Source: an uncultured Sandaracinaceae bacterium
GTDB lineage: Bacteria > Myxococcota_A > Polyangia > Polyangiales > JAFGIB01
Length of the DNA stretch: 64,000 nucleotides
Direction: 5' to 3'
Assembly (NCBI GenBank): GCA_964450715.1
Contig: CAYVFC010000003.1
Span: 5,407-69,406 of the forward strand
Shown here piece by piece: positions 1-64,000 of the stretch. A program made the position numbers and the translations under genes. Position 1 is the stretch's first letter; every line of letters starts with the position of its first letter. Under the pieces are notes generated by a model. That model made no database searches. It was not told where the DNA came from and worked only from the letters and a program-made list of their open reading frames with translations.

Positions 1-1426
1 CGAACAAAATAGGGCTCGGGGGGTAGCGGGGCGGCGCCAGGTGAAAGAGCAGCGGCAACAGCGCGTTCATCTTCCGGTATTGTTCCGGCCGCTCGCCGGG
101 AACGCCCCAGAGCAGGTTGTAGTGCACCTGGATACCGTGCTCCGCGCACCATTTTAAGGCCTGTATGTTTTGCAGCGCGGTGGTCCCCTTGCCCATCAGC
201 TTCAACAGCTCCGTGTTGAAGCTCTCGACACCGAACTGCACGTACCGCGCGCCGCTCAGCGCCAGATCTCGGATCTGGCTCTTCGGCAGGGTGGCGCGCA
301 GCTCGCAGATGAAGGTGAAGTCGCAGTCGAGCCTGCGTAGCGGAGCCAGCGCGTCCCGCAAGACCGCCCGCGGCAGCAGGGTGTCGGTCAGGTGAAAACG
401 CAGAACGCCGTGGGTCGAGGCGAGGGTCTCGATGTCCCGCTGGATCCTGCCCGCCGACTTGACCCGGTGGGGCAGGTTCTCCCGGTCCAGCCCGCAAAAC
501 CGGCAGCGGCGCTCGCCCTTTCCCCACCAGCAGCCGCGCGAGGTCTCGTAGGCCACTCCCTCCAGCGGTATCTCGCACCCCTGCTGGCGGCAGCGCCGCG
601 CTTGATCGAAGTAGTCCGAGTAGTCCGGAAGATAATGCTCGTCCAGCGAAAGGCTCGGCGTCCGGCCCGGGTTGACCACCAGCTGGCCGTCGCGCCGCCA
701 GCAGACGCCGGGTAAGGCGGAGAGGACCCGCCGCTCGCCGCGGCTCAAAGCGCGCACCAGCGGGGTGATCAGCTCCTCGCCCTCCCCCTGAACGCAGCAG
801 TCGATCCAGGGAAAGGCCATCATGTAGCCGGGGCCCATCTCGCCCGAGAAGCAGAATCCGCCGAAGACGACCGGCTTGTGCGGGTATAGCTCCTTGATGC
901 GCCGGGCCAGGGCCAGTGACGGTAGGGTCTGGTGAAAGGTGCAGGTGAAACCGATCAGATCGCTCTGGCGGACCTCGTCGCGAAGCGCCTCTTGCTCGAT
1001 GAAACGCGGCACCAGGCTATCGCGGATATGCAACAGCTCGTCCGCAAAGGCTTCGTCCAGCGGCTCCCCCGGCCGAGCGTTTCCGGCCCCGTACCCGCTC
1101 GGGGCCGCCGGGAAACCGTGACGGGTGCGGTCGAGCAGAAGCTCGAGCCTCTCGCGGTCGCTTTCGGGATGCGAATCGTCCCCGGGAAACAGGCCGCGGT
1201 TGAAGAGCCATTCGGAGACGAACCGCAGGGCGATGTCGTGGACGATGCGCTCGTAGGTCTGTACGCCCAGCAGCGAGGCGAAACGCAGGTTGGCGTGAGA
1301 GGCGGCCGCCGCCACGCCGTCGGCCCTCAGCCGCGCCCCGAGCAGCCCCAGCGGTAGCGAGGGAATGCCGATCGGCGCCCAGGGCATGGTGACGAGCAGC
1401 ACGGTTCCGGCGGGGGTCTGGTCCAA
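1..1426 (-). CDS. B12-binding-domain radical SAM enzyme, TIGR03975-like RiPP-maturation family (partial; C-terminus lies beyond the left edge)
   Basis: My own minus-strand translation reads ...VLLVTMPWAPIGIPSLPLGLLGARL..., then YETSRGCWWGKGERRCRFCGL (approx 487-530) and QFGVESFNTELLKLMGKG. The frame stays open to base 1, so it is absent from the ORF track. Start is TTG 1426 (GAGG 9-12 nt upstream) or GTG 1402. Confidence 0.8.
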   Translation of the reverse strand, partial: MDQTPAGTVLLVTMPWAPIGIPSLPLGLLGARLRADGVAAAASHANLRFASLLGVQTYERIVHDIALRFVSEWLFNRGLFPGDDSHPESDRERLELLLDRTRHGFPAAPSGYGAGNARPGEPLDEAFADELLHIRDSLVPRFIEQEALRDEVRQSDLIGFTCTFHQTLPSLALARRIKELYPHKPVVFGGFCFSGEMGPGYMMAFPWIDCCVQGEGEELITPLVRALSRGERRVLSALPGVCWRRDGQLVVNPGRTPSLSLDEHYLPDYSDYFDQARRCRQQGCEIPLEGVAYETSRGCWWGKGERRCRFCGLDRENLPHRVKSAGRIQRDIETLASTHGVLRFHLTDTLLPRAVLRDALAPLRRLDCDFTFICELRATLPKSQIRDLALSGARYVQFGVESFNTELLKLMGKGTTALQNIQALKWCAEHGIQVHYNLLWGVPGERPEQYRKMNALLPLLFHLAPPRYPPSPILF

Positions 1427-1586
1427 CGATGCGCGCCTCGTGCAAGACGGATCCGAGCTTCCTCGGGCCATCCAAGGTACCACGCTGAAACCTTGCCTGG
1501 CCAGCGTCGCGACGGGGCCGGATCGGCGGCTCTATCCGCGATGGAAAGCGCTTGACCCGGCCTCGAAGGCGGATAGAAGTATTCAA

Positions 1587-3656
1587 ATGGGAGTCGGGGT
1601 AGAGAGCTCGCACGTACTGATCTCCTCCAGGTGCGTAAACGATTGCGTTTTCTGCGCGGTAGCGAACAAGCGCAAGGCCGGGGCGCTGTCCAGCCGGGAG
1701 GAGATCCTCCGCTTCATGGAGAAGATGGCCACCGCCGGCGTCAAGCACCTGACCTTCTCCGGTGCCGGCGAGCCGACCCTGGACGAGCACTTCGAGGAAT
1801 ACCTCGACTATGCCCACCAGCTCGGCTTCCCGCGTATCCAGCTCTTCACCAACGGTCATGCCGTGTCGAGCGACAAGGTGCAGGCCTGGAAGCGATCCGG
1901 GCTCGGCCAGGTGCTGCTCTCGCTGCACGGCCTAGAGGGGGGGCACGACCGCAACGTGCGCCGACGAGGGTCGTTTAGAGAAGCCCTGCAGGCGCTCGAT
2001 ACCTTTCTGGCTGAGGGGCTTCAGGTCAACGTCAATACCTGCCTGACCCGCCATAACCTCGACGAGATAGCCGAGTTGTGCGCGCTGGTGGATCGCTATC
2101 CGGTCGGCCGCCACATGCTCTCCTTTCCCGAATGGCACGGCGCCTGTCTGGCCAATCCGGATCAGCTGCTCTGCTACCAGCAGGTCCGCGATCTCTGCGA
2201 TGACGTCGACTTTTTCGCCTTCCCCAGGGTCGTCTTCGACAACACGCCCTTCTGCATCGCCCGGCACCGGACACGCGAGCTCAGCGGGCTGGGACCGGTG
2301 GTGCTGCTGGACGCCGATCAGGAGCACACGCTGGCCATGGGCGGCGGCAATCGCTATCTCGGGGCGTGCGAGAGCCATTCCTGTCCGGTCAGGCACCTAT
2401 GCTGCGGATTCGACCCGGACTACATCGCGCATCACGGCTGGGGAGCCCTTCCCGGGCTGATCGAGGGCTTCTTCCGGCAGTTCGACTTCACCAGGTTGCG
2501 GCCGCTTCGTTCGGGCAGCGGCGGTTTCCGCCTCTCGCCGCCCCTGCGCCGCCCGGCGGCGCACCGAGCCGAGCCGGATACGGCCGGCGAGGGCATCTTC
2601 AACCTGATCCTCAAGCCGACCGCGCGCTGCAACGGTTCCTGCGCCTACTGCGCGGCCCGGAGCGAGGCCATTGCGTACGCAGATCTCTCGGTCGAGGATG
2701 CCGTCCGCATTTGCGGGACGGTGGCGCGAACCCTTCGCGAGCGGGGCGAGCGCCATCTGCAAATCGTCTGGCACGGCGGCGAGCCGCTTCTCATGGGTCG
2801 CGAGTTCTTCCGCGAGGTCTTGAGCTGGTGCCGGCAGAACCTCGAGGCGCCCCGCGTGAGCCACTCGGTGCAGTCCAACCTGCTTCTGCTGGACGAGCAG
2901 TGGATCGATCTCTTCGGTGCCTTCGACGTGCGGCTGAGCACCTCGGTCGAGCCGGTGGTCGAGGGGCTCCGGGTCTTCGCGGACGGTAGCGAGCAATTTC
3001 CGGGATGGTTCGAACGTTTCCGGCTGGCGATGCGCCGCGGCGTGAAGGTGGGGATCGTATATACCGTCACCGCTCACCACCTCGGACGGGAAGAGAAGAT
3101 CTACAACTACTTTCGCAACCTGCTCGCCACCTACCGCTCTTGCAGCGGGGTCCGTTTCAGTCCCATATACGCCGCCGGTCGCGCGGGCGACGGGAGCCGT
3201 GCGCGTTTGCTGCTCACCGACCAGCAGTACGCCACCTTTCTCCAGGCGATGCAGGCTCTTTGGAGCACGGCCGGGCGGCGGCTCGCTTTCGAGCCCTTCC
3301 GCAGCCTCGCCGGAGGCCACCGCAACTCGTGCGCGCTTTTACCCGACTGCAGCCGCCACTTCCTGGCCGTGGACGGCCAGGGCCGCGTCTCGCCCTGCGG
3401 GCGTTTTCTCGATTCCCGCGTCTTCATCGGTTCTATATACGGCGACGATTTCCCGACCCTGCAACAGAAGGCCCGCGAGCTGCTTTTCGAGCAGCGGGCG
3501 CTCCGCCTGGCCGAGACCGAGTGCCAGGGCTGCCCCGACCTGGAGCGCTGCCACGGCGGCTGTCCCTACCTGGCCTACCTGTACGGCGGCGACGCCAGCC
3601 GCAAGGAGCCCTTCTGCGCCGCCCACCGCGCGCTGTTCGCCTCAACCCGCGGGTAG
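1587..3656 (+). CDS. Tandem radical SAM / radical SAM-SPASM fusion protein (two catalytic cores in one polypeptide)
   Basis: ORF 1365..3656. Its 5' part overlaps the divergent gene, so ATG 1587 (MGVGVESSHVLISSRCVNDCVFC) is preferred. Core 1 has CVNDCVFC (1632-1655) plus FSGAGEPTL. Core 2 has CNGSCAYC (2628-2651) plus WHGGEPLL. The C-terminal SPASM block is CQGCPDLERCHGGCPY...C. Confidence 0.85.
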   Translation: MGVGVESSHVLISSRCVNDCVFCAVANKRKAGALSSREEILRFMEKMATAGVKHLTFSGAGEPTLDEHFEEYLDYAHQLGFPRIQLFTNGHAVSSDKVQAWKRSGLGQVLLSLHGLEGGHDRNVRRRGSFREALQALDTFLAEGLQVNVNTCLTRHNLDEIAELCALVDRYPVGRHMLSFPEWHGACLANPDQLLCYQQVRDLCDDVDFFAFPRVVFDNTPFCIARHRTRELSGLGPVVLLDADQEHTLAMGGGNRYLGACESHSCPVRHLCCGFDPDYIAHHGWGALPGLIEGFFRQFDFTRLRPLRSGSGGFRLSPPLRRPAAHRAEPDTAGEGIFNLILKPTARCNGSCAYCAARSEAIAYADLSVEDAVRICGTVARTLRERGERHLQIVWHGGEPLLMGREFFREVLSWCRQNLEAPRVSHSVQSNLLLLDEQWIDLFGAFDVRLSTSVEPVVEGLRVFADGSEQFPGWFERFRLAMRRGVKVGIVYTVTAHHLGREEKIYNYFRNLLATYRSCSGVRFSPIYAAGRAGDGSRARLLLTDQQYATFLQAMQALWSTAGRRLAFEPFRSLAGGHRNSCALLPDCSRHFLAVDGQGRVSPCGRFLDSRVFIGSIYGDDFPTLQQKARELLFEQRALRLAETECQGCPDLERCHGGCPYLAYLYGGDASRKEPFCAAHRALFASTRG

Positions 3657-3684
3657 GGGGGATACCATTTAGTTACCCCCCTAC
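3653..3684 (+). terminator. GC hairpin overlapping the stop codon (terminator-like, no U tract)
   Basis: Perfect 9-bp stem GTAGGGGGG (3653-3661) / CCCCCCTAC (3676-3684) with a 14-nt loop. The TAG stop at 3654-3656 sits inside the stem. Confidence 0.3.
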
Positions 3685-3757
3685 GCGAAAGACGACGGGA
3701 AGGGTTTTTACGAACCGCCTCTGGTCACCTACCGACGCGCCCGACTACCGGGCGCTG

Positions 3758-3990
3758 GCCGGGCGCGGGAAGGCCGGGACCGGGCGGCGGGGGCTACCCG
3801 CGTGCCAACCCGCCCAGCTATCGAGACCCCGGGTTGGCGCGCGGGTCGAGCGCGGGTTGCGTCCGGCAGGGCAAGAGCCCGTACGGCCGGACAATGCAAC
3901 CCGCGCGACCCCCGCCGCCCGGTGTCGGCCTTCCCGCGCCCCACCCGAAACGCAGGCAGCCCTGAAGCGATCAAGTCGTGCTAGTGTAGA
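3758..3990. repeat. Dispersed GC-rich intergenic repeat (family C), copy 1
   Basis: 3758-3816 aligns by eye at roughly 80 percent with 51411-51470. 3843-3869 is identical (27/27) to 60434-60460, and 3886-3897 is identical (12/12) to 60477-60488. The internal hairpin is CGCGGGTTGCGTCCGGC...GCCGGACaatGCAACCCGCG. Confidence 0.6.
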
Positions 3991-4907
3991 TGCCAACCCG
4001 GCGCCGCTTCGCGCCCTGCCACCAGACCATGCCCGACTTCCCCGAACAGATGATCGTGAGCGCGCCGCCGGGATTTCTCGAGCAGCAGAGCTGCCGGGTG
4101 ATCCTCCGGCTCTTCGACGTCGGGCGCGACGCCGCCCGGCTGGCCGCGCCCTACGGAAAGCGCATCAGCCACATCGACATGAACGGCAAGACGCTGGCCT
4201 CATTACCGAGGCTGGATCTGCTGGCCGAGCACCGCATCCGGCTCTTTGTCTCGGACGCGGATATTCCCTTGATACACCGGATCTCGAAGACCGCGGTCAA
4301 GCACCGTCTGGTGCTCTTCGTCCAACCGGACGCTGGCGCCGCCCGACGGATCAACCTGCTGAGCGAGTTCGATATCCCCATGCACATCGATCCCGGCGCG
4401 GGCCCCGCGGCGGAGGGCGTGCTGCCGCAACTTCTCGAGTACTACCTGCATAACCCGCTGCTGAACGCCTCCATCGCGCCCTTCAACGCGCTGATGAAGC
4501 ACGAGATCGAGGGCAAGGGGTATACCCTCTGGGATACGGAGTACGAAAAACCGGGTCGATACCTCTACCTATCCGCCGAGGGCGACATCTCGCTTTCGGG
4601 CAGGTTTCACCGAGCCGGGGTCGTCTTCGGCACCAGGTACGAGGCTTGGGAGCAAATCGCTGGGTCCGAGGCCTACCGGCGCCTGCTCGGATACCGGGAC
4701 GCCATGTTTGAGAAGGGCGAGCCCTGTGCCTTCTGCGCCGGGTTCCGCTTCTGTCAGGGCTATCTGAAAGCGGTGGACGCGGACGCCGACTGCGAGCAGT
4801 GGCAGCGGGTGTTCGAGGGAATCGGGCTGGCGGTCGACCAGGCCAGGGGTATCATAAGGGACGGTTATGGAAAGCGTGCCCGGGACCGCGGCGGGAAACC
4901 GGCGTAA
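3990..4907 (+). CDS. Hypothetical protein with only a SPASM/twitch-like Cys block (no radical-SAM CX3CX2C motif)
   Basis: ORF track, 305 aa. The only Cys cluster is C-terminal, CAFCAGFRFCQGY...DC (CX2CX5C). It overlaps the next rSAM gene by 41 nt. Start is uncertain: ATG 3990 lies at the end of the repeat, and ATG 4029 is the alternative. Confidence 0.6.
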   Translation: MPTRRRFAPCHQTMPDFPEQMIVSAPPGFLEQQSCRVILRLFDVGRDAARLAAPYGKRISHIDMNGKTLASLPRLDLLAEHRIRLFVSDADIPLIHRISKTAVKHRLVLFVQPDAGAARRINLLSEFDIPMHIDPGAGPAAEGVLPQLLEYYLHNPLLNASIAPFNALMKHEIEGKGYTLWDTEYEKPGRYLYLSAEGDISLSGRFHRAGVVFGTRYEAWEQIAGSEAYRRLLGYRDAMFEKGEPCAFCAGFRFCQGYLKAVDADADCEQWQRVFEGIGLAVDQARGIIRDGYGKRARDRGGKPA

Positions 4908-5976
4908 GAAGGTATTCTCCGTCGTCTTCATGCCCACGCTGGCGTGCAATTGCACCTGCGACTATTGCTTCCAGAACAAGACCGGCAGCCTGATGTCGGA
5001 CCAGGTGCTGCACCGCTTTCTCGACGGCCTGCTCGATCATTGCGGGCAGGAGAACATCCGTGGCCTCAAGATCTTCTGGCAGGGCGGCGACGTGCTTACC
5101 CTCTCCCCGGAACGGGCGAGCCAGATCCTGGGGATCTTCCGCGAGCGGACGGCCGGTAGCGGCGTTGCGGTCAACCACTATATACAGACCAACCTGCTGG
5201 GCTATCACCAAGGCTGGAAGCAGATCCTGCGGGACAACTTCAAGGACAGGATCAGCTCCTCGCTGGACTATCCCAACCTGTATCGCCAGGGGCCCGGCAT
5301 CGGCGTCGACGACTACTTCGACCGTTGGTTGCGGAAAAAGGAGCAGATCGAGAGCGACGGCTTTGGCGTGAGCGTGATCGCCCTGCCCAACGCGGAGACC
5401 CTCGAGCGAGGCGCCCAGGCCTTCTACGACTTCTACGGCAACACCGCCGGCATCAAGAGCCTGCAGGTCAACTTCCCCTTTCCCGGCATCGGCTCCGACT
5501 ACCCGCGAGAGCTGTCGCTCGAGAAGTACTCGGACTTCCTGCTAGATCTGTACCGGATCTGGAAAGAGGACGGCAGGCGTATCCACCTCAGGCCCTTTGT
5601 GACCATCGAGCGCAAGAAGAAGACGCCGGCGGCCAGCACCTTCTGTATCTGGTCCTATTGTTGCGCCGACGACATCCTGGCCGTGGCGCCGGCAGGAGAG
5701 GTGGCGCAGTGCGACTGCTGGATCCTCTGCCTGAACGAGTTCCAGTACGGTACGGTGCGCGACGCGAGCATGCGGCAGCTGCTGGACTCGCCCAACCGAC
5801 GGATCTTCTACCAGCGGGCGGAGAAGCTGGCGCTTCAGAGCGAGTGCGGGCAGTGCGTCTACTGGAGGCTCTGTCACGGCGGATGTCCGATCCGGGCCTA
5901 TCGCTTCTCGGGCGAGTTCTTTGCCAAGGACCATTTTTGCGCCGTTTACCGGGCCTTGTTTGACACGATTAGCTGA
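4867..5976 (+). CDS. Radical SAM/SPASM domain maturase
   Basis: ORF track, 369 aa. Motifs are FMPTLACNCTCDYC (CX3CX2C), FWQGGDVLTL, and the C-terminal SPASM block CGQCVYWRLCHGGCP...FC. Confidence 0.85.
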   Translation: MESVPGTAAGNRRKKVFSVVFMPTLACNCTCDYCFQNKTGSLMSDQVLHRFLDGLLDHCGQENIRGLKIFWQGGDVLTLSPERASQILGIFRERTAGSGVAVNHYIQTNLLGYHQGWKQILRDNFKDRISSSLDYPNLYRQGPGIGVDDYFDRWLRKKEQIESDGFGVSVIALPNAETLERGAQAFYDFYGNTAGIKSLQVNFPFPGIGSDYPRELSLEKYSDFLLDLYRIWKEDGRRIHLRPFVTIERKKKTPAASTFCIWSYCCADDILAVAPAGEVAQCDCWILCLNEFQYGTVRDASMRQLLDSPNRRIFYQRAEKLALQSECGQCVYWRLCHGGCPIRAYRFSGEFFAKDHFCAVYRALFDTIS

Positions 5977-6011
5977 CTTCGATAGTCTGGTTCAAATTCA
6001 AGAGGTGCTCC

Positions 6012-6869
6012 ATGGCTAAGAAGAGGGAACCTGAAGACGGGCGGAAGAACACCGTCGCGCGGGAGCCGGATCCCCGCGAAGCGCGCTGGCTCGATCGACG
6101 CAGCTTCCTGATGAGCGCGGGCAAGTACTCGGCTGCCGCGGCCGGTCTGCTCGCCGGCGCGCCGACCCTTTTCAGCGGCTGTTTTTTCGGCAAGAGCGAC
6201 GACGACCAGAGCGATGCCAAGCCGATCGAGCGCTACCAGCAGGAGGCGGTGCCGGCGATCATGGACGCGGACACCGGAGCCTCGCTGTCCGATGGCGAGG
6301 ATGCGGTCTACGAAATCTCCATCGAGCAAGCCGGCGACTACATGTTGACCGTCTCGTCCGAGAGCACCTTGCCGGAAGCAGACGCGGTACGGGCCTTTTT
6401 GCTCGAGGAAGACGGCGACGTGATCTGGTGGGAAGATATAAGGGCAGGTGCTACCTATACCGAAGGGTGGGAGGGCCTGCACTCGGGCATTTATTACCTG
6501 GTCATCGAGAGCCAGACCGACTCGGTCAAGGTCGTCTTCACCGTGACCGAGCAGAGCGGTAGCGGCGAGGGCGGCACGGGCGGTTCGGGCGAAGGGGGCA
6601 CGGGCGGCACCGGCGAGGGCGGTAGCGGCGAGGGAGGCACCGGCGAAGGCGGTAGCGGCGAGGGAGGTACCGGCGAAGGGGGCACGGGCGAGGGCGGCAG
6701 CGGCGAGTGGGACGACTACTCGGACTGGGTCGACAGCGCCTGGACCAACAACACCTGGTCCGACAGCTCGGGCTGGAAGGATGCGGGCAGCGGCACCTGG
6801 GTGGCCTACTCGGATTCCTGGTACGCCGGCGAGTGGGACGACGGCTGGCTGAACTACGGCTACTACTGA
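6012..6869 (+). CDS. Tat-signal lipoprotein with a PPC-like beta-sandwich, a (GEGG[ST]G)n linker and a Trp/Tyr/Asp-rich C-terminal tail
   Basis: ORF track, 285 aa, with AGAGG upstream. The twin-arginine motif is DRRSFLMSAG, followed by an h-region and lipobox LFSGC. The PPC-like pattern is GDYMLTVSS...GIYYLVIES. The last 54 residues contain 9 W, 6 Y and 9 D. Confidence 0.75.
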   Translation: MAKKREPEDGRKNTVAREPDPREARWLDRRSFLMSAGKYSAAAAGLLAGAPTLFSGCFFGKSDDDQSDAKPIERYQQEAVPAIMDADTGASLSDGEDAVYEISIEQAGDYMLTVSSESTLPEADAVRAFLLEEDGDVIWWEDIRAGATYTEGWEGLHSGIYYLVIESQTDSVKVVFTVTEQSGSGEGGTGGSGEGGTGGTGEGGSGEGGTGEGGSGEGGTGEGGTGEGGSGEWDDYSDWVDSAWTNNTWSDSSGWKDAGSGTWVAYSDSWYAGEWDDGWLNYGYY

Positions 6870-6878
6870 TCCCCCCTT

Positions 6879-6961
6879 GTCATTTCGACCGACCCTGTCA
6901 TTTCGACCGAAGGGAGAAATCTCTTTTTCGATAGAGATCTCTCACGTACGTTCGAGATGAC
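6879..6961. repeat. Palindromic dispersed repeat, family A (GTCATTTCGACCGAAGGGAGAAATCTC ... GAGATCTCTC..CG.TCGAGATGAC), full copy with a duplicated left end
   Basis: The left arm occurs twice (6879-, 6897-) and the right arm ends at 6961. The same element is found at 8562, 10714, 34679 (half copy) and 63805 (half copy). Confidence 0.85.
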
Positions 6962-8486
6962 GCGCGCCACGGGCGTGCTGGCCCTGTTCGGCGCCATCAT
7001 CGCCATGACGGCGCTGAACCGCGAGGTCGTCTCCATTTTACCTTTCGGGATCGAGGGCGACGGCCCGGGTTACATTTCCTATGCTGCCGCCCTCGGCGTG
7101 CACGGGTTCCGGGCGGTCGACCCCATGTGGCAGCCGGGCTACCCCTTTGCCCTGTGGCTGCTATCGCCGCTGTTCGCGGAGCCGTTCCGGGCCGGCGTGA
7201 TGATCTCCCTGGTCGCCGGCCTGGGCTTTTTGGCTCTCTGCTACCTGCTGGTGGCCGAGCGCTTCTCCGCCCCGCTCGGCCTGCTCTCGGTCGCCCTCAT
7301 CGCCAGCAGCGATCTGTTCGTCGTAAGCGCCTGCAGCGTCAACTCGGACATGACCTACGGCTGCCTGGCGCTGGGCAGCATCGCAGTGCTGTTTCGCGAG
7401 CGGATGCCCGCGGCCCGGCGCCTGGCCGTCGCCGGACTGCTGGCCGGCGCGGCCTATATGGTTCGACATCAGGCGCTTATGCTGCCGCTGCTCATGGCAC
7501 TCGTCTTGCCGACGCTGCCGCGCGGCGAGCGCCTGAAGGCCGGCCTATGGGGCGCGCTCGCCTTTTCGCTGGCTGCCCTTCCCGTGCTCGTCGCCTACGC
7601 TCTGCGTTTCGGCAATCCCCTCTACAATGAGCACTACCTCAACCTGGCCGGCGCGGCCTACTTCGACGGCAATCTGAACCTGTTCTTTCACGGGGGGCAC
7701 GCCGCGGCCTACGATTCGTGGGGCCAGGTACTGTCCGAGCGGCCGATGGCCATCGCGCGCTTTCTGGCGCTCAATTTTTGGCGGAGCTTCGCCGCGCTTC
7801 TTACCGAAACCCACGCGATACCCTTGCTCTGGGTCCCAGCCGTGGTGGGGATGGTGCGGATCAGGAGCGTCGACAGGCTCGTCCTGCTCGCCGCGCTGCT
7901 GCTCTGCCTTCTGTCCATGTCGACGGTTGCCACGCGGCCGCGCTACCTGCTGCTGGCGCTGCCGTTTTTCCTGCCCTTTGCGGTCGACGGCGCTGTTTGG
8001 GTTTATGGACGGGCGCGGGCGGCGATCGGGTGGAAGCTTCACGACGCCGTTCCGGCAGGTATCCTGCTGGCCGTTTTCGCGCTGCTGGCGGCGCGCGCCG
8101 GCCGGGAGGTGCTACGGGAAGAGGATCCGGTCTTCCGCGCGGCCGGGCTTTTACTCCGCGAGGCGACCGATCCGGGTGACCGAGCGCCGTTTCTCTCCAT
8201 CTACCCCTTTCACGTGGGGTACTACGCCGAAAGGCGCGGCGTGTTCCTGCTCTCGCCCCGTTTCAACCGGCCGCCCTATTCGCTCGAGGCCGCGAACCGG
8301 GCGCTGCGCGCGACCATCGAGAGAAACGGCGCCGGATACCTACTCTATTACAGGTTTCCCGGCTTCAACCGGCCCGCTTTTCCCCACCTCGCCTCGGCGG
8401 GCAGAGCCCCGCCCTTCCTCGAGCCGCTGGCCGAGCGATCCGATCCGCTGCTGGTCCTCTATCGCTACCGGCCGGAGCTTCGCTGA
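6957..8486 (+). CDS. Polytopic membrane protein, GT-C fold glycosyltransferase (PMT_2/ArnT-like, GT39/83-type)
   Basis: ORF track, 509 aa, with many hydrophobic segments. The first-loop pattern GDGPGYISYAAAL...QPGYPFALWLL resembles the D-x-x-x-Y...hPPl motif of ArnT/PMT_2 enzymes. The ATG lies inside the right end of the family A repeat. Confidence 0.55.
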   Translation: MTRATGVLALFGAIIAMTALNREVVSILPFGIEGDGPGYISYAAALGVHGFRAVDPMWQPGYPFALWLLSPLFAEPFRAGVMISLVAGLGFLALCYLLVAERFSAPLGLLSVALIASSDLFVVSACSVNSDMTYGCLALGSIAVLFRERMPAARRLAVAGLLAGAAYMVRHQALMLPLLMALVLPTLPRGERLKAGLWGALAFSLAALPVLVAYALRFGNPLYNEHYLNLAGAAYFDGNLNLFFHGGHAAAYDSWGQVLSERPMAIARFLALNFWRSFAALLTETHAIPLLWVPAVVGMVRIRSVDRLVLLAALLLCLLSMSTVATRPRYLLLALPFFLPFAVDGAVWVYGRARAAIGWKLHDAVPAGILLAVFALLAARAGREVLREEDPVFRAAGLLLREATDPGDRAPFLSIYPFHVGYYAERRGVFLLSPRFNRPPYSLEAANRALRATIERNGAGYLLYYRFPGFNRPAFPHLASAGRAPPFLEPLAERSDPLLVLYRYRPELR

Positions 8487-8561
8487 GCTTCTACGCGCTT
8501 GACAGCACTATTCCCGTCAATTCGTCCGCTCCCGCTGCCATTTTGCCCGCCCCCCCCTTTT

Positions 8562-8650
8562 GTCATTTCGACCGAAGGGAGAAATCTCGTTTGTGTAACA
8601 GAGATCTCTCACCTCCGTTCGAGATGACAACGATATTCGTTCGAGATGAC
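8562..8650. repeat. Palindromic dispersed repeat, family A, full copy
   Basis: Left arm 8562-8588, right arm 8601-8628, plus an extra partial right end at 8636-8650. Confidence 0.85.
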
Positions 8651-8656
8651 ACTTCG

Positions 8657-9547
8657 CTACGGGCACTCGGCGTGCATCTCGTCGTCGCAGGTCGGCTCGG
8701 GCTCGCCGCTGAAGTCGCAGGCATAGGTCTCGCCCTCGGAGCTGAAGGTCGCTTCGGCTGCGACGACTTTCCCGTTGGAAGTGTGCTCGCAAGGGCACGA
8801 GACCCCGATGGCTATGTACCCGAATCCCGAGCTCTTCCCGCCTTCCATATGGTAGAGGATGCACTCGTTTTCGGCGAACCAGGACGGAAACGTGGCGTCG
8901 TTCGCCTCACAGATCGTCTCGCTGGAGGAGCCGCACAGATCACCGGGATCGTCGGCGCAGGCCACGAACTGGTTCGCGCCGCAGTGCTCGGTGCCGTAGC
9001 AGTCGGTGAAGCAGCACCAGCCGTCCGTGCACTCGAGGTAATCATAGGTCGGTGCGCTTCCGCCCGAGCCGCCGTCGCCGCCGCTACCGCCGGTTCCGGC
9101 GGTTCCGGCCGTTCCCGCGGTACCGCCGGTTCCGGCGGTAGAGCCGCCCTCGCCGCCCTCGCTGCCGCCGGTTCCGGCAGCCGATCCGCCCTCGCCGCTG
9201 GTTCCGCCGCCTCCGCCGGACTCGCCGCCGCTTCCGCCGCTTCCGCCGGACTCGCCGCCGCTTCCGCCGCTTCCGCCGGACTCGCCGCCGGTGCCCGCGG
9301 CGGTTCCGCCGGAACCGCCTGTGCCGGATCCGGAACCGCTGCTGTCGACCACGCACTTGTCGGACAGGCAGACCAGCCCCGTGTCGCAGGTTCCACCCGA
9401 CGTACAGTCACAGCCCTCGGACCCAACATCGCAGTCGTTCGCCTCTTCCTCGCAGGCCGTCACCGCAACCGTGCCCAGCATCACCGCTCCCAGTAAAACG
9501 GCTCGCAAAATCGCGGATTCAACGCTCGTTCCCCTCGTCCTCATCAT
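8657..9547 (-). CDS. Secreted lipoprotein with a Gly/Ser-rich linker and Cys-rich N- and C-terminal modules
   Basis: ORF 8657..9691. The internal start MMRTRG at 9547 is preceded by GGGAGG. The signal and lipobox read LGTVAVTAC. The linker is (GGESGGSGGS)n. The C-terminal domain has many Cys. Confidence 0.7.
   Translation of the reverse strand: MMRTRGTSVESAILRAVLLGAVMLGTVAVTACEEEANDCDVGSEGCDCTSGGTCDTGLVCLSDKCVVDSSGSGSGTGGSGGTAAGTGGESGGSGGSGGESGGSGGSGGESGGGGGTSGEGGSAAGTGGSEGGEGGSTAGTGGTAGTAGTAGTGGSGGDGGSGGSAPTYDYLECTDGWCCFTDCYGTEHCGANQFVACADDPGDLCGSSSETICEANDATFPSWFAENECILYHMEGGKSSGFGYIAIGVSCPCEHTSNGKVVAAEATFSSEGETYACDFSGEPEPTCDDEMHAECP
9213..9292. repeat. Perfect 30-bp tandem repeat (about 2.7 units) inside the lipoprotein linker
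   Basis: CCGCCGGACTCGCCGCCGCTTCCGCCGCTT is repeated head to tail. It encodes SGGSGGSGGE units on the minus strand. Confidence 0.8.
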
Positions 9548-9721
9548 CCGACCTCCCAGTCGACCTCTGCCGGGCCAGGGCCATTGCGGCGCTGCGAAAA
9601 ACCCTGCAGAGAAGCCAAGAACCTTCCCGGATACCCGGAATCCCTTCCAGCCCATTTTTATCAGGTTTCGACCGACCCTTCTACAGCTCACCGGTTGTCA
9701 GCCGGTCGCCGGGGCACCAGA

Positions 9722-10678
9722 ATGGGGGCGAGTCGATCGATGAGACGCAAGGCCGCGCTGTACTGCGAAAACCAGGGATCGGAGCCGACGATCCATTCGT
9801 TTCTGGACCGGATCGTGATCGGGCGCCGCCAGCCCGGCGACCCGGATCAGTGCCACATCGTCATCCCCGACCGGATGGTCTCGGCACGCCACTGTATCGT
9901 CAGCCAGTCGTCGGACGGCCGCTTCCTGCTCCGGGACGTCAGCCGCAACGGCGTCCGGGTAGACGGGCGGAGAATCGCGCCGAACGTGGAGACCGAGCTC
10001 GCGCCGGGGGCGGTCATCCAGATCGCCGGCCGCAGCTTCACGTTCCGGGTCGAGGAGGCACCGGTCGAGCGGGCATCGACGGTCCGCGAGCAGGACTCGA
10101 CCGAGGCCGCCGCTGGCGAGTCGCCGGTAACCCTGCTGGTGGGCGATATCCGGGGCTACACCACCTTGAGCCAGCAGTTCGGCCCGGCCGATGTCGCCGG
10201 ATCGGTCCGAACGGTCTTCGAACGGTTAGCAGCATTCATCGGGCAGATGAAGGGCACGGTAAAGGAGTACCAGGGCGATGCCATCGTAGCCTTCTGGGAG
10301 GGCGATCTCAACCCGCCGTTTCAGTTCGCCCTGGACGCCTGCAACGCGGCGCTGCGCTTGCACGAGGAAGTGCGCGCCATGGCGGGCAATCCGGGCGTCT
10401 GGCGGATAAGGGACTTTCCCCTGCAGATGGATTTCGCGCTGGCTTCCGGCATGGTGTCTATCACCACCGTGGGGGGCAACCTGGCCGTGGTGGGCGACCC
10501 CATCAACTACGCCTTCCGGCTGGAGAAGTTGGCGACCGACCAGACGGGTTTCATCCTGACCTGCAACACCACCCAACTTCTAGCCAAGAAGGGCTTCCGC
10601 TTCCGGCCCCTGGGCGTGACCCAGGTCAAGGGGCGGGCCAAGGCCGAGCCGATCTTTTCCCTTCAGGGCGCTCTGTAG
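9722..10678 (+). CDS. FHA domain - class III adenylate/guanylate cyclase
   Basis: ORF 9584..10678, with ATG 9722 preferred. The FHA pattern is IGRR...VSARHCIV...RFLLRDVSRNGVRVDG. The cyclase motifs are LLVGDIRGYTTL, GDAIVAFW and VVGDPINYAFRLE. Confidence 0.85.
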   Translation: MGASRSMRRKAALYCENQGSEPTIHSFLDRIVIGRRQPGDPDQCHIVIPDRMVSARHCIVSQSSDGRFLLRDVSRNGVRVDGRRIAPNVETELAPGAVIQIAGRSFTFRVEEAPVERASTVREQDSTEAAAGESPVTLLVGDIRGYTTLSQQFGPADVAGSVRTVFERLAAFIGQMKGTVKEYQGDAIVAFWEGDLNPPFQFALDACNAALRLHEEVRAMAGNPGVWRIRDFPLQMDFALASGMVSITTVGGNLAVVGDPINYAFRLEKLATDQTGFILTCNTTQLLAKKGFRFRPLGVTQVKGRAKAEPIFSLQGAL

Positions 10679-10713
10679 ACGTCGGCGCCGAAGCCGTCGG
10701 TTATCGCGTTTCT

Positions 10714-10803
10714 GTCATTTCGACCGAAGGGAGAAATCTCTTCCTTTGATGATGGAGATCTCTCGCTCCGCTCGAGATGACACTTCACCTGGCTCGAGAT
10801 GAC
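10714..10803. repeat. Palindromic dispersed repeat, family A, full copy
   Basis: Left arm 10714-10740, right arm 10755-10781, plus an extra partial right end at 10791-10803. It sits between convergent genes. Confidence 0.85.
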
Positions 10804-10833
10804 ACCGCGCCGACGTTCGTTTCGGTATACGAT

Positions 10834-12474
10834 CTACGAACCCAGGATGGTATCCAGCGAGCTCTTTTTCGGTTGGGGCTCGTCGTCATCGGCGCCCAGC
10901 ACCGAGTCCAGGATCCGTTCCTTGCCGGCCGGCCGGGCGGGTTTCGCTGGAACGGGCGCCTTCTGCCGGCGGCTTACCCGGCGTTTCGGCGCCGCGGCCG
11001 GCTTCGAGGCCGAATCGACCGCATCGCTCTTCGCGCGCGCGCGGGCGGCCGTTGTGCCCCGGTCATCCGTCGCGCTCGGCCGATCGGCCCGGTCGGCGAC
11101 CGCGGCGTCCGCTCGCCTCGCGGCCAGCGCGTTTTTATTTGCGATATCCGTCGCGCTCGATTGCGACCCCGGCGGCTCGTACGGGTGAAGCTCGTTCATC
11201 GCGTCGGTCGATCCGTTCTCGTCCGTGTCCCCGCCGCCGCCCGCGCCCCCGGCGAAAAAGCCCACCGCTACCAGCGCGCCGCCCAGCAGTATCGCGGCCA
11301 GACCCAGCAGCGGCGCGCGACTGGATATCGTCCGTCGCATGGGCACGTTGACCGGCTGCAGGGTCGACGACTCCGCCGCCGCCTTGGCCTGCGGTCCGGC
11401 GGCCGAGGTCACGGCAGCCGCGTCGGCAGCCGCGTCGGTCCGGGCTTCGGGCGCGCCGCCAGGTACCGCGTAGGTCTCCTCCGCCGGGTCTCCTCCGCCG
11501 GCCGGCGAGTCGCCGGGCGGGGAAGCGCCCGGGGAGCCCGGCCCGGCTTCGTCTTTGATCGGCGAATCCAGCCCCCCGACCGGATGGTCGTTGCTCGCTT
11601 CCCAGTCCAGTTGTTGATCGGGAAAGAAGGGCGCGAGCGCCTTGGCCAGGCTGGCCACGTCCTGGTAGCGCGTCTCGAGTGAGCTCGATATCGCCCGCTT
11701 GACCACGGCGTCGAGCTCGGCCGGAAGCTCCTCGACGTGCTCGGTCATGGGGGTCGGGTTGCCCTCGTGAATCTTGATCGCCAGCTCCAGGATGCTCCCT
11801 TCGTAGGGCATCTGCCCGGTGAGCACCTCGTAGAGGATGACGCCCAGCGCGTAGACGTCGGTCTGGACGGTGACGTTCCTGGCATCCTGTAGCTGCTCGG
11901 GGGACATGTAAAGGAGCGTGCCCATGGTGCTCCCCTCCTGGGTCAGGGTGCCCTGCCCCCTACCCTCGGTCACCTTGGCGATGCCGAAATCGAGCACCTT
12001 GGGGGTCCAGCCCTCGGGCGTCTCGGCCAGGAAGATGTTCGCCGGCTTGAGATCGCGGTGCACCACGCCCTTCTGGTGGGCCGCGTAAACGCCCCGCAAT
12101 ACCGGTCCCATGACGCGGCCCGTTTGCTCCAGCGGTAGGCGCCCCTCCCCCAGGTAGTCGCTCAGCGACTGACCTTCGAGAAACTCCATGACGATGTACG
12201 GGGCGCCCGTCTCGGTGCTGATGTCGATGGGCCTGACCACGTTGGGATGCTCGATGCGCGCTGCGACCTGGGCCTCGGTCAGGAAGCGTTTGACCGCCAC
12301 CTCGTGGCTGGCCAGATGCGGCATCAACCACTTGATGGCCACGCGGTTGCCGAGCACGGTATGGGTGGCCGCATAGACCGCGCCCATCGCTCCCTCGCCG
12401 ATCTTCCTGTCGATGCGATACTTGCCGTTGTCGACCAGGTCGCCGACCTGGGGGAGCTGTGGTTCGCTACTCAC
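10834..12474 (-). CDS. Ser/Thr protein kinase with a C-terminal TM segment and a Pro/Ala-rich tail
   Basis: ORF track, 546 aa. Motifs are GEGAMGAVY...VAIK, VVHRDLKPANIFL, DFGIAKV and YMSPEQ. Confidence 0.9.
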   Translation of the reverse strand: MSSEPQLPQVGDLVDNGKYRIDRKIGEGAMGAVYAATHTVLGNRVAIKWLMPHLASHEVAVKRFLTEAQVAARIEHPNVVRPIDISTETGAPYIVMEFLEGQSLSDYLGEGRLPLEQTGRVMGPVLRGVYAAHQKGVVHRDLKPANIFLAETPEGWTPKVLDFGIAKVTEGRGQGTLTQEGSTMGTLLYMSPEQLQDARNVTVQTDVYALGVILYEVLTGQMPYEGSILELAIKIHEGNPTPMTEHVEELPAELDAVVKRAISSSLETRYQDVASLAKALAPFFPDQQLDWEASNDHPVGGLDSPIKDEAGPGSPGASPPGDSPAGGGDPAEETYAVPGGAPEARTDAAADAAAVTSAAGPQAKAAAESSTLQPVNVPMRRTISSRAPLLGLAAILLGGALVAVGFFAGGAGGGGDTDENGSTDAMNELHPYEPPGSQSSATDIANKNALAARRADAAVADRADRPSATDDRGTTAARARAKSDAVDSASKPAAAPKRRVSRRQKAPVPAKPARPAGKERILDSVLGADDDEPQPKKSSLDTILGS

Positions 12475-34678: not shown

Positions 34679-34705
34679 GAGATCTCTCCCTCCGGTCGAA
34701 ATGAC
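34679..34705. repeat. Family A repeat, solo right-arm half copy
   Basis: GAGATCTCTCCCTCCGGTCGAAATGAC. Confidence 0.7.
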
Positions 34706-34760
34706 ACCGAAAGGCGCGCTCGGTCTGGGCGCGCCGTTCGACCTGTCCCCGCTTCCTAAC

Positions 34761-63713: not shown

Positions 63714-63804
63714 CAACTGGTTAACACAGTTTGTAGACGCGCGTCCGTGCAGTGTCAAATAGGCCGTTTTTTTATCGTTTTCGTTCCCGCCGTAGAATTC
63801 CCAT

Positions 63805-63830
63805 GTCATCTCGACCGAAGGGAGAGATCT
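63805..63830. repeat. Family A repeat, solo left-arm half copy
   Basis: GTCATCTCGACCGAAGGGAGAGATCT. Confidence 0.7.
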
Positions 63831-64000
63831 TCTTCCGGTCGTGCTGGCTGCAGTCGCTCCTGTCGTAGAATCTGGGCCCAGTTGAGCATGGCCGTGCCCG
63901 CGTGCTGGACGAAGTCGTTCCTCACGGAGAGATCAGCCGGGTATCCGGGAACCCCTCCCAGGGCCGCCCGAGGATTTAGCAGCAGGTGCTCGGGCCCGGG
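63806..64000 (-). CDS. Unknown protein, C-terminal 64 codons only (gene continues beyond the right edge)
   Basis: My own minus-strand translation reads [64 protein letters not shown]. The last 8 or so codons and the TGA stop lie inside the family A repeat. Confidence 0.4.

Follow-up and report, generated by a model that had tools for sequence, protein, structure and literature searches.

The DNA analysed here, hereafter the window, is a stretch of 64,000 nucleotides (nt) from an uncultured Sandaracinaceae bacterium (assembly GCA_964450715.1, contig CAYVFC010000003.1, positions 5,407 to 69,406 of the forward strand), and our subject is a gene at 1587-3656 whose 689-residue product carries two complete radical S-adenosylmethionine (SAM) cores in one polypeptide, together with the operon that it opens. 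In that operon the fused gene is followed by one for a partner protein, which we call p290, then by one for a third radical SAM enzyme with a SPASM domain, and then by one for a repeat-tailed protein that measures 146-285 amino acids (aa) among the loci of the family. The two halves of the fused protein are referred to as the N and C modules, and its features are the following.

1587-3656, + strand: fused two-core radical SAM gene (689 aa and stop; identical protein on two Logan contigs; 24 full-length homologues)
1587-2546, + strand: N module (residues 1-320), radical SAM core 1 and a twitch-like Cys-rich extension (NCBIfam and PDB sequence matches, model)
1632-1655, + strand: core 1 CX3CX2C triad, C16, C20 and C23 (CVNDCVFC, residues 16-23), at least 90% conserved
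1755-1781, + strand: core 1 GGE-type SAM strand FSGAGEPTL (residues 57-65), with G59, G61, E62 and P63 invariant
2253-2405, + strand: N module Cys set C223, C261, C266 and C272, all four invariant in 24 sequences (hairpin and helices in the model)
2547-2588, + strand: inter-domain linker (residues 321-334), with a predicted local distance difference test score (pLDDT) below 50, length and sequence varying among homologues, and the frame unbroken
2589-3653, + strand: C module (residues 335-689), radical SAM core 2 and SPASM domain (NCBIfam, PDB sequence and Foldseek matches)
2628-2651, + strand: core 2 CX3CX2C triad, C348, C352 and C355 (CNGSCAYC, residues 348-355), at least 90% conserved
2769-2792, + strand: core 2 GGE strand WHGGEPLL (residues 395-402), with W395, G397 and G398 invariant
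3330-3617, + strand: SPASM Cys C582, C588, C604, C646, C649, C655, C659 and C677, in anSME-type spacing (two predicted auxiliary clusters)

The open reading frame (ORF) that ends at 3656 on the + strand has been open since 1365, and the 689 aa are counted from the ATG at 1587, which is also the start called on two independent Logan contigs with an identical protein and agrees with the N-termini of the homologues; a protein identical to that of the window is listed from an NCBI source as well. The G+C content at third codon positions (GC3), taken in the reading frame, lies at 0.76-0.90 in every 150-nt segment of the gene and at 0.82-0.88 through the junction stretch 2337-2637, and because it is high throughout, the junction hides neither a frameshift nor a stop that was missed.

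Two radical SAM cores in one chain

As marks of a radical SAM core we took the CX3CX2C triad, a SAM strand of the GGE type and the half-barrel fold (beta/alpha)6; as marks of a SPASM domain, a C-terminal motif of seven or eight Cys (CX9-15GX4C ... CX2CX5CX3C ... C) and two auxiliary [4Fe-4S] clusters; and as marks of a twitch domain, an extension that resembles SPASM but is shorter, with a single auxiliary cluster and Cys flanking a beta-hairpin. Core 1 combines its triad and FSGAGEPTL with six beta/alpha units at residues 7-179 and with the first (residues 11-167) of two separate stretches that the Pfam model Radical_SAM (PF04055) matches on the fused protein (1.1e-32), and core 2 combines its triad and WHGGEPLL with the second Pfam stretch and a barrel at residues 337-526. 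In the alignment and the model, the invariant C223, C261, C266 and C272 of the N module, the last three within CESHSCPVRHLCC at residues 261-273, surround a predicted hairpin at residues 238-249, and they are the probable ligand set of one auxiliary iron-sulfur (Fe-S) cluster. The C module has eight conserved Cys in its SPASM region, with an alignment that reaches the C-termini of the anSME, DynA and CbpB models; the Pfam SPASM model (PF13186) is present in several homologues and stays under threshold on the window protein. Five [4Fe-4S] sites, each of which would hold a cluster, are predicted per fused chain.

The NCBIfam profiles divide near residue 335. N-type models cover residues ~5-200, the best being NirJ, pseudo-SAM/SPASM, MoaA, MftC and HxsC, with PqqE also matched, and C-type models (DynA, anSME, AmcB, YhhB, DarE/W and CbpB) cover residues ~340-687. 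Over residues 341-687, DynA reaches 1e-42 and anSME 5e-41, both under their cut-offs (146.4 bits vs 450 for DynA, and 140.9 vs 349.45 for anSME, TIGR03942), and the same holds for DarE (68 vs 650), AmcB (88 vs 425) and YhhB (82 vs 445) on the C half and for HxsC (TIGR03977, 61.7-77 bits vs 267.9) on the N module. All curated NCBIfam families score far under cut-off for the fused protein and Pfam gives the generic Radical_SAM alone, for which reason naming the enzyme from curated families was dropped.

A sequence search against the PDB matched the N half to SkfB (6efn, a twitch enzyme and the best match), PqqE (6c8v) and GDGT-MAS, and the C half to anSME (4k37, at 3.6e-17) and ChlB. The AlphaFold2 model, built on the homologue alignment (mean pLDDT 87), has two beta/alpha half-barrels, each of six strands and apart from the other, with a disordered linker between them, and Foldseek against the PDB placed anSME at the top (template modelling (TM) score on the target ~0.8) and ChlB (9gm3) second (0.74), with further matches to CteB, SkfB, TigE, viperins, MoaA and PqqE. 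Fold and sequence matches divide in the same manner, the C half going with anSME, ChlB and CteB and the N half with SkfB, PqqE, MoaA and viperin. From its sequence, the N module appears to be a radical SAM domain distantly resembling HxsC, NirJ and SkfB, to which a twitch-like extension with four Cys is added; the C module is an anSME/ChlB/DynA-like SPASM domain. The first-pass annotation, made from the letters alone, had described two complete cores in one 689-aa polypeptide, and this description is borne out by the two Pfam stretches, the split of the NCBIfam profiles and the two predicted half-barrels, including a SAM barrel in the first half (residues 7-179); both cores appear catalytically intact. 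All four of the triad and GGE motifs lie where it had placed them, the extra Cys cluster with which it had core 1 end belongs to the set of four Cys invariant in 24 homologues, and the full SPASM motif that it saw at the end of core 2 is real in spacing and conservation.

Operon, homologues and module shuffling

The remaining genes of the operon, and a divergent neighbour upstream, are listed below.

4029-4907, + strand: p290, a 292-aa partner with a predicted pseudo-radical-SAM/SPASM fold (alignment, model and fold matches)
4867-5976, + strand: third radical SAM/SPASM enzyme, 369 aa (41-nt overlap with the end of p290; conserved in orthologous operons)
6012-6869, + strand: candidate substrate, 285 aa, with an Arg-Arg pair (RR) like that of twin-arginine translocation (Tat) signals, a lipobox Cys, a central domain, a GEGG linker and an aromatic-X-Asp/Asn tail
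1-1426, - strand: 3' part of a B12-binding radical SAM gene, divergent and running off the left edge (TIGR03975; full product of 639 aa on the Logan contig L001)

A search of 5.8 billion proteins yielded, for the fused protein, 24 full-length homologues (641-834 aa, 35-58% identical, query coverage 89-100% and 99-100% in 19 of them) from JGI, ENA, Logan and NCBI assemblies, for which the public annotation is "radical SAM protein" alone. They span several phyla, Poribacteria included, and more loci come from metagenome-assembled genomes (MAGs) of Rectinemataceae and Planctomycetota. In the alignment of these 24, the triads and GGE-type strands of the two cores, like the Cys of the N half and of the SPASM motif, are invariant or conserved to at least 90%; 20/24 sequences keep the two triads, the two GGE strands and every auxiliary Cys, and conservation is similar in the two halves (38-63% for N, 33-55% for C). 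Since the homologues keep one ORF and GC3 is even over the junction, a missed stop or frameshift is excluded, and the N-C fusion is genuine and not an assembly artefact; the check around 2400-2600 that the first-pass annotation had recommended thus found no break, whether by homologue alignment, independent contigs or GC3 along the gene. A profile of the fused family was also run over 1.84 billion representatives and its matches were scanned with custom domain hidden Markov models, one for each half of the fused protein, one for p290 and one for the third enzyme. Among those representatives the full-length N-C type forms ~10 clusters at 50% identity, and the two-core fusion is therefore conserved but rare. 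In sister lineages, including L014 (740-2860), the second domain has lost its motifs, and often its SPASM Cys too, which shows an active core turning into a pseudo-enzyme domain.

Orthologous loci are L003 (Poribacteria MAG), L004, L005, L006, L007, L013 (Rectinemataceae MAG) and L014 (Planctomycetota MAG), and the window locus recurs, identical, on the longer contig L001. The order fused gene, p290, third enzyme and precursor is found again in L003, L005, L007 and L013; L006 has the first three as far as its contig end, and L004 has the same modules in a different order. The p290 protein is without CX3CX2C and has instead invariant C233, C236, C242 and C255 (nt 4725-4793) in the pattern CX2CX5CxG...C. 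No Pfam or NCBIfam family matched it, its model is well scored (pLDDT 88, predicted TM score (pTM) 0.84), and its best fold matches are anSME, TigE, PqqE and SuiB; as modelled, p290 would be a pseudo-radical-SAM Fe-S protein, with the radical-SAM/SPASM fold and without the SAM-cluster triad. The third enzyme is ~26% identical to the C module and matches the NCBIfam models DynA (6e-31), anSME and the SPASM domain TIGR04085 (47.9 bits vs a cut-off of 27), while GrrM/OscB (56 vs 310), FxsB (44 vs 370) and XyeB (35 vs 450) stay under their cut-offs and matches to HxsB (TIGR03978), seen for it and its homologues, are weak.

The divergent B12-binding gene encodes a product that matches TIGR03975, "RiPP maturation radical SAM C-methyltransferase" (503 bits vs a cut-off of 282; RiPP, a peptide made on the ribosome and modified after translation), as well as B12-binding, Radical_SAM and DUF5825 in Pfam. 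As such a gene adjoins in 6/7 related loci, it is probably part of the same cluster; it was not counted as a conserved fifth module, the genes of the other loci being 21-27% identical to that of the window. In the complete gene on L001 (7921-9840, - strand), CWWGKGERRCRFC (CX8CX2C) replaces CX3CX2C, at about 494-532 of the window. The operon has no tetrapyrrole, molybdenum cofactor (Moco), F420 or sulfatase genes and no darobactin-like short precursor; Rfam gave no match on nt 1-12000, and the PADLOC defence models gave generic viperin-core matches alone.

The four modules also occur in other combinations. Besides N-C, the fusion types seen are third-N (P0134, P0138), p290-N-third (P0139, 950 aa), C-N and N-N, and over 40 proteins join p290 to a core of N or C type, 18 of them as p290-N, 23 as C-type-p290 and 3 as N-p290, besides one more N-p290 protein with a split p290 match. 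Three loci from deltaproteobacterial and Desulfomonilaceae MAGs (L019, L017 and L020) have a precursor, a lone C-type gene, a lone p290 gene and a third-N fusion; L011 and L012 have a precursor, a stand-alone C-type gene and a p290-N-third fusion; and in L010 a stand-alone N-type gene (P0135, 305 aa) has unrelated neighbours. Fusion boundaries are thus evolutionarily fluid, and the same four modules travel together. Because the boundaries move, we regard the N-C fusion as co-assembly in a multi-module machine and not as a dedicated relay from N to C, and for the fused modules parallel action on different types of motif is as conceivable as action one after the other. The first-pass annotation had proposed two consecutive radical steps on one substrate, and only part of this stands: a single substrate fits the operon, because it encodes a single conserved candidate substrate protein, but consecutive steps are unsupported where the fusion boundary is so fluid. 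Its suggestion of looking for orthologues split into two genes was answered in a similarly mixed way, with split and re-fused modules (lone C, third-N, p290-N-third) on the one hand and an N-C fusion kept in 24 homologues on the other.

Some proteins met in these scans depart further from the window architecture. P0046, P0224, P0234 and P0255 (1047-1318 aa) have three or four CX3CX2C triads apiece, along with three to five stretches of Radical_SAM type, largely from N-type modules, so that multi-core radical SAM fusions go well past two cores in metagenomes. At L015 (7495-10217, Phycisphaerae MAG), a 776-aa C-type-p290 fusion lies beside a Cys/Tyr-rich repeat protein (…EYCDYANYSDYADENCGYCD…), and the system has here a simpler relative that lacks an N-type core. 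At L008 (10001-12505, GCA_964485495.1), a maturase ORF that lacks the SPASM end reads on, in frame, through a precursor-like beta domain and then a tail of YSDW type (834 aa in all); the p290 and third-enzyme genes are missing there, YcaO and more radical SAM genes lie nearby, and the ORF is a chimera left by a deletion or else a fusion of enzyme and substrate.

Candidate substrate and proposed maturation

The putative lipoprotein signal of the 285-aa protein, read by inspection, is DRRSFLM...LFSGC, with the RR at residues 29-30 and the Cys at 57 (the segment covers residues 26-57, nt 6087-6182), and its tail is the last 55 aa (nt 6702-6866). Precursors of the family generally have a Tat-like RRxFL, a hydrophobic segment leading to a lipobox-like Cys, a central domain in most and a tail in which Trp, Tyr, Asp, Asn and Ser abound, and both the RR motif and the Cys straight after the hydrophobic region are conserved in most of them. 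The gene lies downstream, upstream or convergent relative to the enzyme genes, depending on the locus. The tail motif is an aromatic residue with Asp or Asn at position +2 (YSD, WTN, WSN, WSD, YAD), and such aromatic-X-Asp/Asn triplets amount to 9/13 in the window, 12/15 in L003, 14/22 in L005, 14/17 in L007 and 23/25 in L011. A dense run of them is present in 8/8 family loci with enough flank and in two others among the 93 loci scanned, one of the two being L015, where Tyr-X-Asp and Cys repeats lie beside the C-type-p290 fusion. The L008 maturase ORF, continuous with a tail of the precursor kind, also speaks for this protein as the substrate. The window therefore has what defines a triceptide precursor, a repeated aromatic1-X2-X3 motif beside a SPASM enzyme, and the co-encoded lipoprotein is most likely the substrate of the maturase.

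The precursors of the third-N clade (L019 5437-5820, L017 7244-7777 and L020 1371-1709) have the same Tat-like leader, SRRSFLTSLGKWSS, and a different, GCRVWGN-repeat core; they share the leader-like N-terminus SRRSFLTSLGKWS and keep a W-G-N triplet, which suggests, as far as sequence goes, that the same module set may handle Cys-containing W-G-N repeats. A role for a conserved aromatic C-terminus, as in MftC-like decarboxylation, was considered and dropped, the L011 precursor ending in basic residues. Two unrelated loci (L004 15993-17210 and L005 17600-18891) have tatC and tatA/B genes right next to the maturase operon, as would fit a Tat route reserved for exporting the modified protein.

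We think it likely that the two modules of the fused protein, p290 and the third SPASM enzyme form a four-module maturase that modifies the tail of the lipoprotein, probably by cyclophane cross-linking. Cyclophane-type links are the best supported chemistry because the tail motif, the fold match to ChlB and the aromatic cross-linkers at the top of the profile lists point to them, with DynA, AmcB, YhhB, DarE/DarW and GrrM/OscB leading the NCBIfam matches of the two SPASM modules. In each SAM-bound core, cleavage of SAM would yield a 5'-deoxyadenosyl radical and a hydrogen would be taken from the residue at +2, whose carbon radical would then add to the Trp or Tyr ring, so that cyclophanes form repeatedly in the cytoplasm. 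Two SPASM cores and two main flavours of motif suggest a division of labour, in which one core might serve Tyr-X-Asp and the other Trp-X-Asn/Asp. The N core and its frequent fusion partner p290 may carry out a separate step, as HxsC and HxsD do in the HXS system. The rigidified lipoprotein would be exported by Tat, a route that suits a pre-cross-linked, rigid substrate, and then be anchored by its lipid.

Several observations weigh against this proposal or narrow it. The mutual orientation of the two cores is undefined in the model (pTM 0.54). In the sister proteins P0024, P0124, P0125, P0025 and P0026 an intact N core is followed by a second domain without triad and GGE strand, and because of such lineages core 2 would be catalytic in some lineages and not in all. 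Since all curated scores are far under cut-off, the chemistry cannot be transferred by homology. None of 2000 composition-preserving shuffles (0/2000) reached the observed aromatic-X-Asp/Asn count in the five tails, but the test overstates independence, as the repeats within the tails descend from one unit. The precursors of L003 and L013 are without the RR pair, so that Tat export is not universal, and the Cys in the GCRVWGN repeats makes thioether or other links possible there, to judge from the sequence.

Against this background four other explanations deserve discussion. A different modification of the same tail (C-alpha epimerization, beta-hydroxylation or oxidation of Asp or Asn, a thioether, or aromatic ether or C-N links) is a real possibility, if one that we would not expect to hold: anSME-type SPASM enzymes oxidize side chains, enzymes of the DarE/DynA type make ether and C-N links (darobactin, dynobactin) and score here like triceptide synthases, the third-N clade has Cys in its GCRVWGN-repeat precursors, and the N core is without a characterized close relative. 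However, the pairing of an aromatic residue with Asp or Asn at i/i+2, kept across very different tails, is the signature of a three-residue cross-link (PMC11499958) and not of a change to one residue. It is a good deal less probable that one core alone is catalytic, the other being a structural or docking pseudo-enzyme, so that a single radical step is made. The decayed second domain of the five sister proteins named above, with their N core intact, and the presence in the operon of a degenerate radical SAM fold, p290, would suit such an arrangement, but 20/24 homologues and the window protein itself retain all motifs at 35-58% identity, and this retention, with the two halves similarly conserved, points to selection at each of the active sites.

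An enzyme acting on a cofactor or other small molecule (a tetrapyrrole, a molybdopterin-like compound or an FbiC-like coupling), with the lipoprotein unrelated to it, is very improbable. The best profiles of the N half do include NirJ, AhbC/AhbD, MoaA and PqqE, and FbiC is itself a two-core fusion serving cofactor synthesis (PMC11917521); these profiles, however, cover the generic core at residues ~5-200 with 60-98 bits vs cut-offs of 265-650, the operon has no genes for tetrapyrrole, Moco or F420, and what surrounds the enzyme is a set of SPASM maturase-like enzymes, a TIGR03975 methyltransferase and, in every locus whatever its order, a repeat-tailed protein. Hardly any credence can be given to a merger of two adjacent radical SAM genes through a missed stop or frameshift near nt 2400-2600, even though stand-alone N-type (P0135, L010) and C-type (L011, L019) proteins exist and the junction is a low-complexity linker. 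The 24 full-length homologues, drawn from four sources, keep one ORF with linkers of varied length, the identical protein comes from two separate sequencing runs, and GC3 is 0.82-0.88 in frame over 2337-2637; the sole checked split that ends right after the N module (P0126, 312 aa, L009) is unreliable and was not used as a split orthologue, its contig ending in a repeat 40 nt past the stop.

If the four-module maturase works as proposed, it has consequences beyond this locus. To our knowledge, radical SAM peptide and protein maturases have almost always been described as single-core enzymes, and the only cooperation of two such maturases that we know to have been demonstrated concerns separate proteins (TrnC/TrnD, HxsB/HxsC). 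The covalent two-core fusion is a system for asking how radical sites share one substrate and a supply of reductant. The candidate substrate is unusual as well, being, to judge from its signal, a full-size exported lipoprotein, not a short peptide, with about ten or more motifs. Were the motifs cross-linked, triceptide-type chemistry would reach beyond small natural products and take in structural proteins of the cell envelope. More tentatively, the system may stand for an undescribed class of protein-scale RiPP-like maturation in which ~9 Fe-S clusters serve to place dense cross-links on the tail of a Tat-exported lipoprotein, giving a rigid, acidic and aromatic "armoured" appendage of the envelope. 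By analogy with HXS, an envelope-defence or surface function would then be possible, and the appendage could parallel the antiphage effector of that system or take part in metal or mineral binding or in adhesion. As the family has no curated model and a generic annotation only, it is directly actionable for enzyme discovery.

Just past the operon, 88 nt after the candidate substrate gene, 6957-8486 (+ strand) encodes a 509-aa polytopic membrane protein of the PMT_2 family (ArnT/PMT-like glycosyltransferase), which could glycosylate the exported Ser/Thr-rich protein; the gene is not conserved in the other loci. Further on, 8657-9691 (- strand) encodes a probably secreted 344-aa protein with a long low-complexity region of Gly, Ser, Thr and Glu followed by a Cys-rich C-terminal domain, and its gene has 9-nt periodic DNA repeats at 9060-9307. 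A conserved and relatively AT-rich element, TGTCATTTCGACCGAAGGGAGAAATCTC...GAGATCTCTC..TCGAGATGAC, lies at 6896-6961, 8561-8628, 10713-10760, 34679-34706 (- strand) and 63804-63831, five copies in the window vs none (0) expected by chance, and stands just past the stop codons of three consecutive genes. It has a short inverted repeat and no Rfam match and is probably an intergenic element like repetitive extragenic palindromes (REP) or miniature inverted-repeat transposable elements (MITE), or a terminator.

Comparison with known systems

Our survey of the literature on two-domain or tandem radical SAM maturases and on Tat/radical SAM precursors found FbiC, Tes and TrnC/TrnD, and the fused family is not described there. 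In Tes, two CxxxCxxC motifs have been noted (PMC8941075). FbiC is a fusion of CofG and CofH with two radical SAM domains in one chain, which is split in archaea (PMC11917521). It resembles the window protein in that one polypeptide holds two radical SAM domains, each with its own 5'-deoxyadenosyl radical, that are separate proteins elsewhere; it differs in making a deazaflavin cofactor from small molecules with domains that are not of the SPASM or twitch kind, whereas the context in the window is one of protein or peptide maturation, and CofG, CofH and FbiC are absent among the 25 best NCBIfam matches of either the whole protein or the N half. The thuricin CD maturases TrnC and TrnD, two radical SAM/SPASM enzymes that act together in an obligate, tight complex (PMC12093266), are the non-covalent counterpart of the window fusion, unlike which they are separate polypeptides, install sactionine thioethers on short peptides and have one activity that alone is strictly essential.

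The best sequence and structure matches of the C half, anSME and DynA/DarE, share with it, as predicted, a SPASM domain with two auxiliary clusters and protein or peptide substrates. Neither assignment holds for the window enzyme: the anSME score is under cut-off and the operon has no sulfatase gene, and the DynA/DarE scores are under cut-off and the candidate precursor is a predicted 285-aa lipoprotein, not a short Trp-containing peptide. Triceptides are built on aromatic1-X2-X3 motifs in which SPASM radical SAM enzymes join the ring to the C-beta of X3, as ChlB does on YDR (PMC11499958). Their synthases (XyeB, YhhB, GrrM/OscB, FxsB, AmcB, ChlB, HtkB, HaaB) are SPASM enzymes too, and the repeated motifs of the window fit the definition. 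The enzyme is nevertheless outside the curated cyclophane synthase families (XyeB, YhhB, GrrM/OscB, FxsB and AmcB), with all scores under cut-off, and, in contrast to known synthases with a single core and a short precursor, the window has three cores predicted to be active and a pseudo-core, and its family a 146-285-aa exported protein or lipoprotein with ~9-23 motifs that would be cross-linked.

The closest analogue of the whole system is the HXS antiphage system, in which HxsB (SPASM) and HxsC with its partner HxsD mature a tripeptide-repeat protein in the cytoplasm before its export to the envelope (PMC13128918). The two have in common SPASM and non-SPASM radical SAM enzymes, a partner protein and, as proposed for the window, a tripeptide-repeat substrate and its export, and the N module matches HxsC and HxsC4, with a match in L011 that spans nearly the whole HxsC model. 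The scores under cut-off place the window outside HXS proper, and its repeats are aromatic-X-Asp/Asn instead of His-X-Ser. Its candidate substrate has a putative Tat/lipobox signal where that of HXS has a peptidoglycan-binding domain, its enzymes are fused, it has a second SPASM enzyme and a pseudo-radical-SAM partner of 292 aa instead of a small one, and the hosts of its family are uncultured lineages outside the Pseudomonadota. Judged by domain architecture, partner protein, repeat motif and type of substrate, the window family appears to be set apart from all of these systems.

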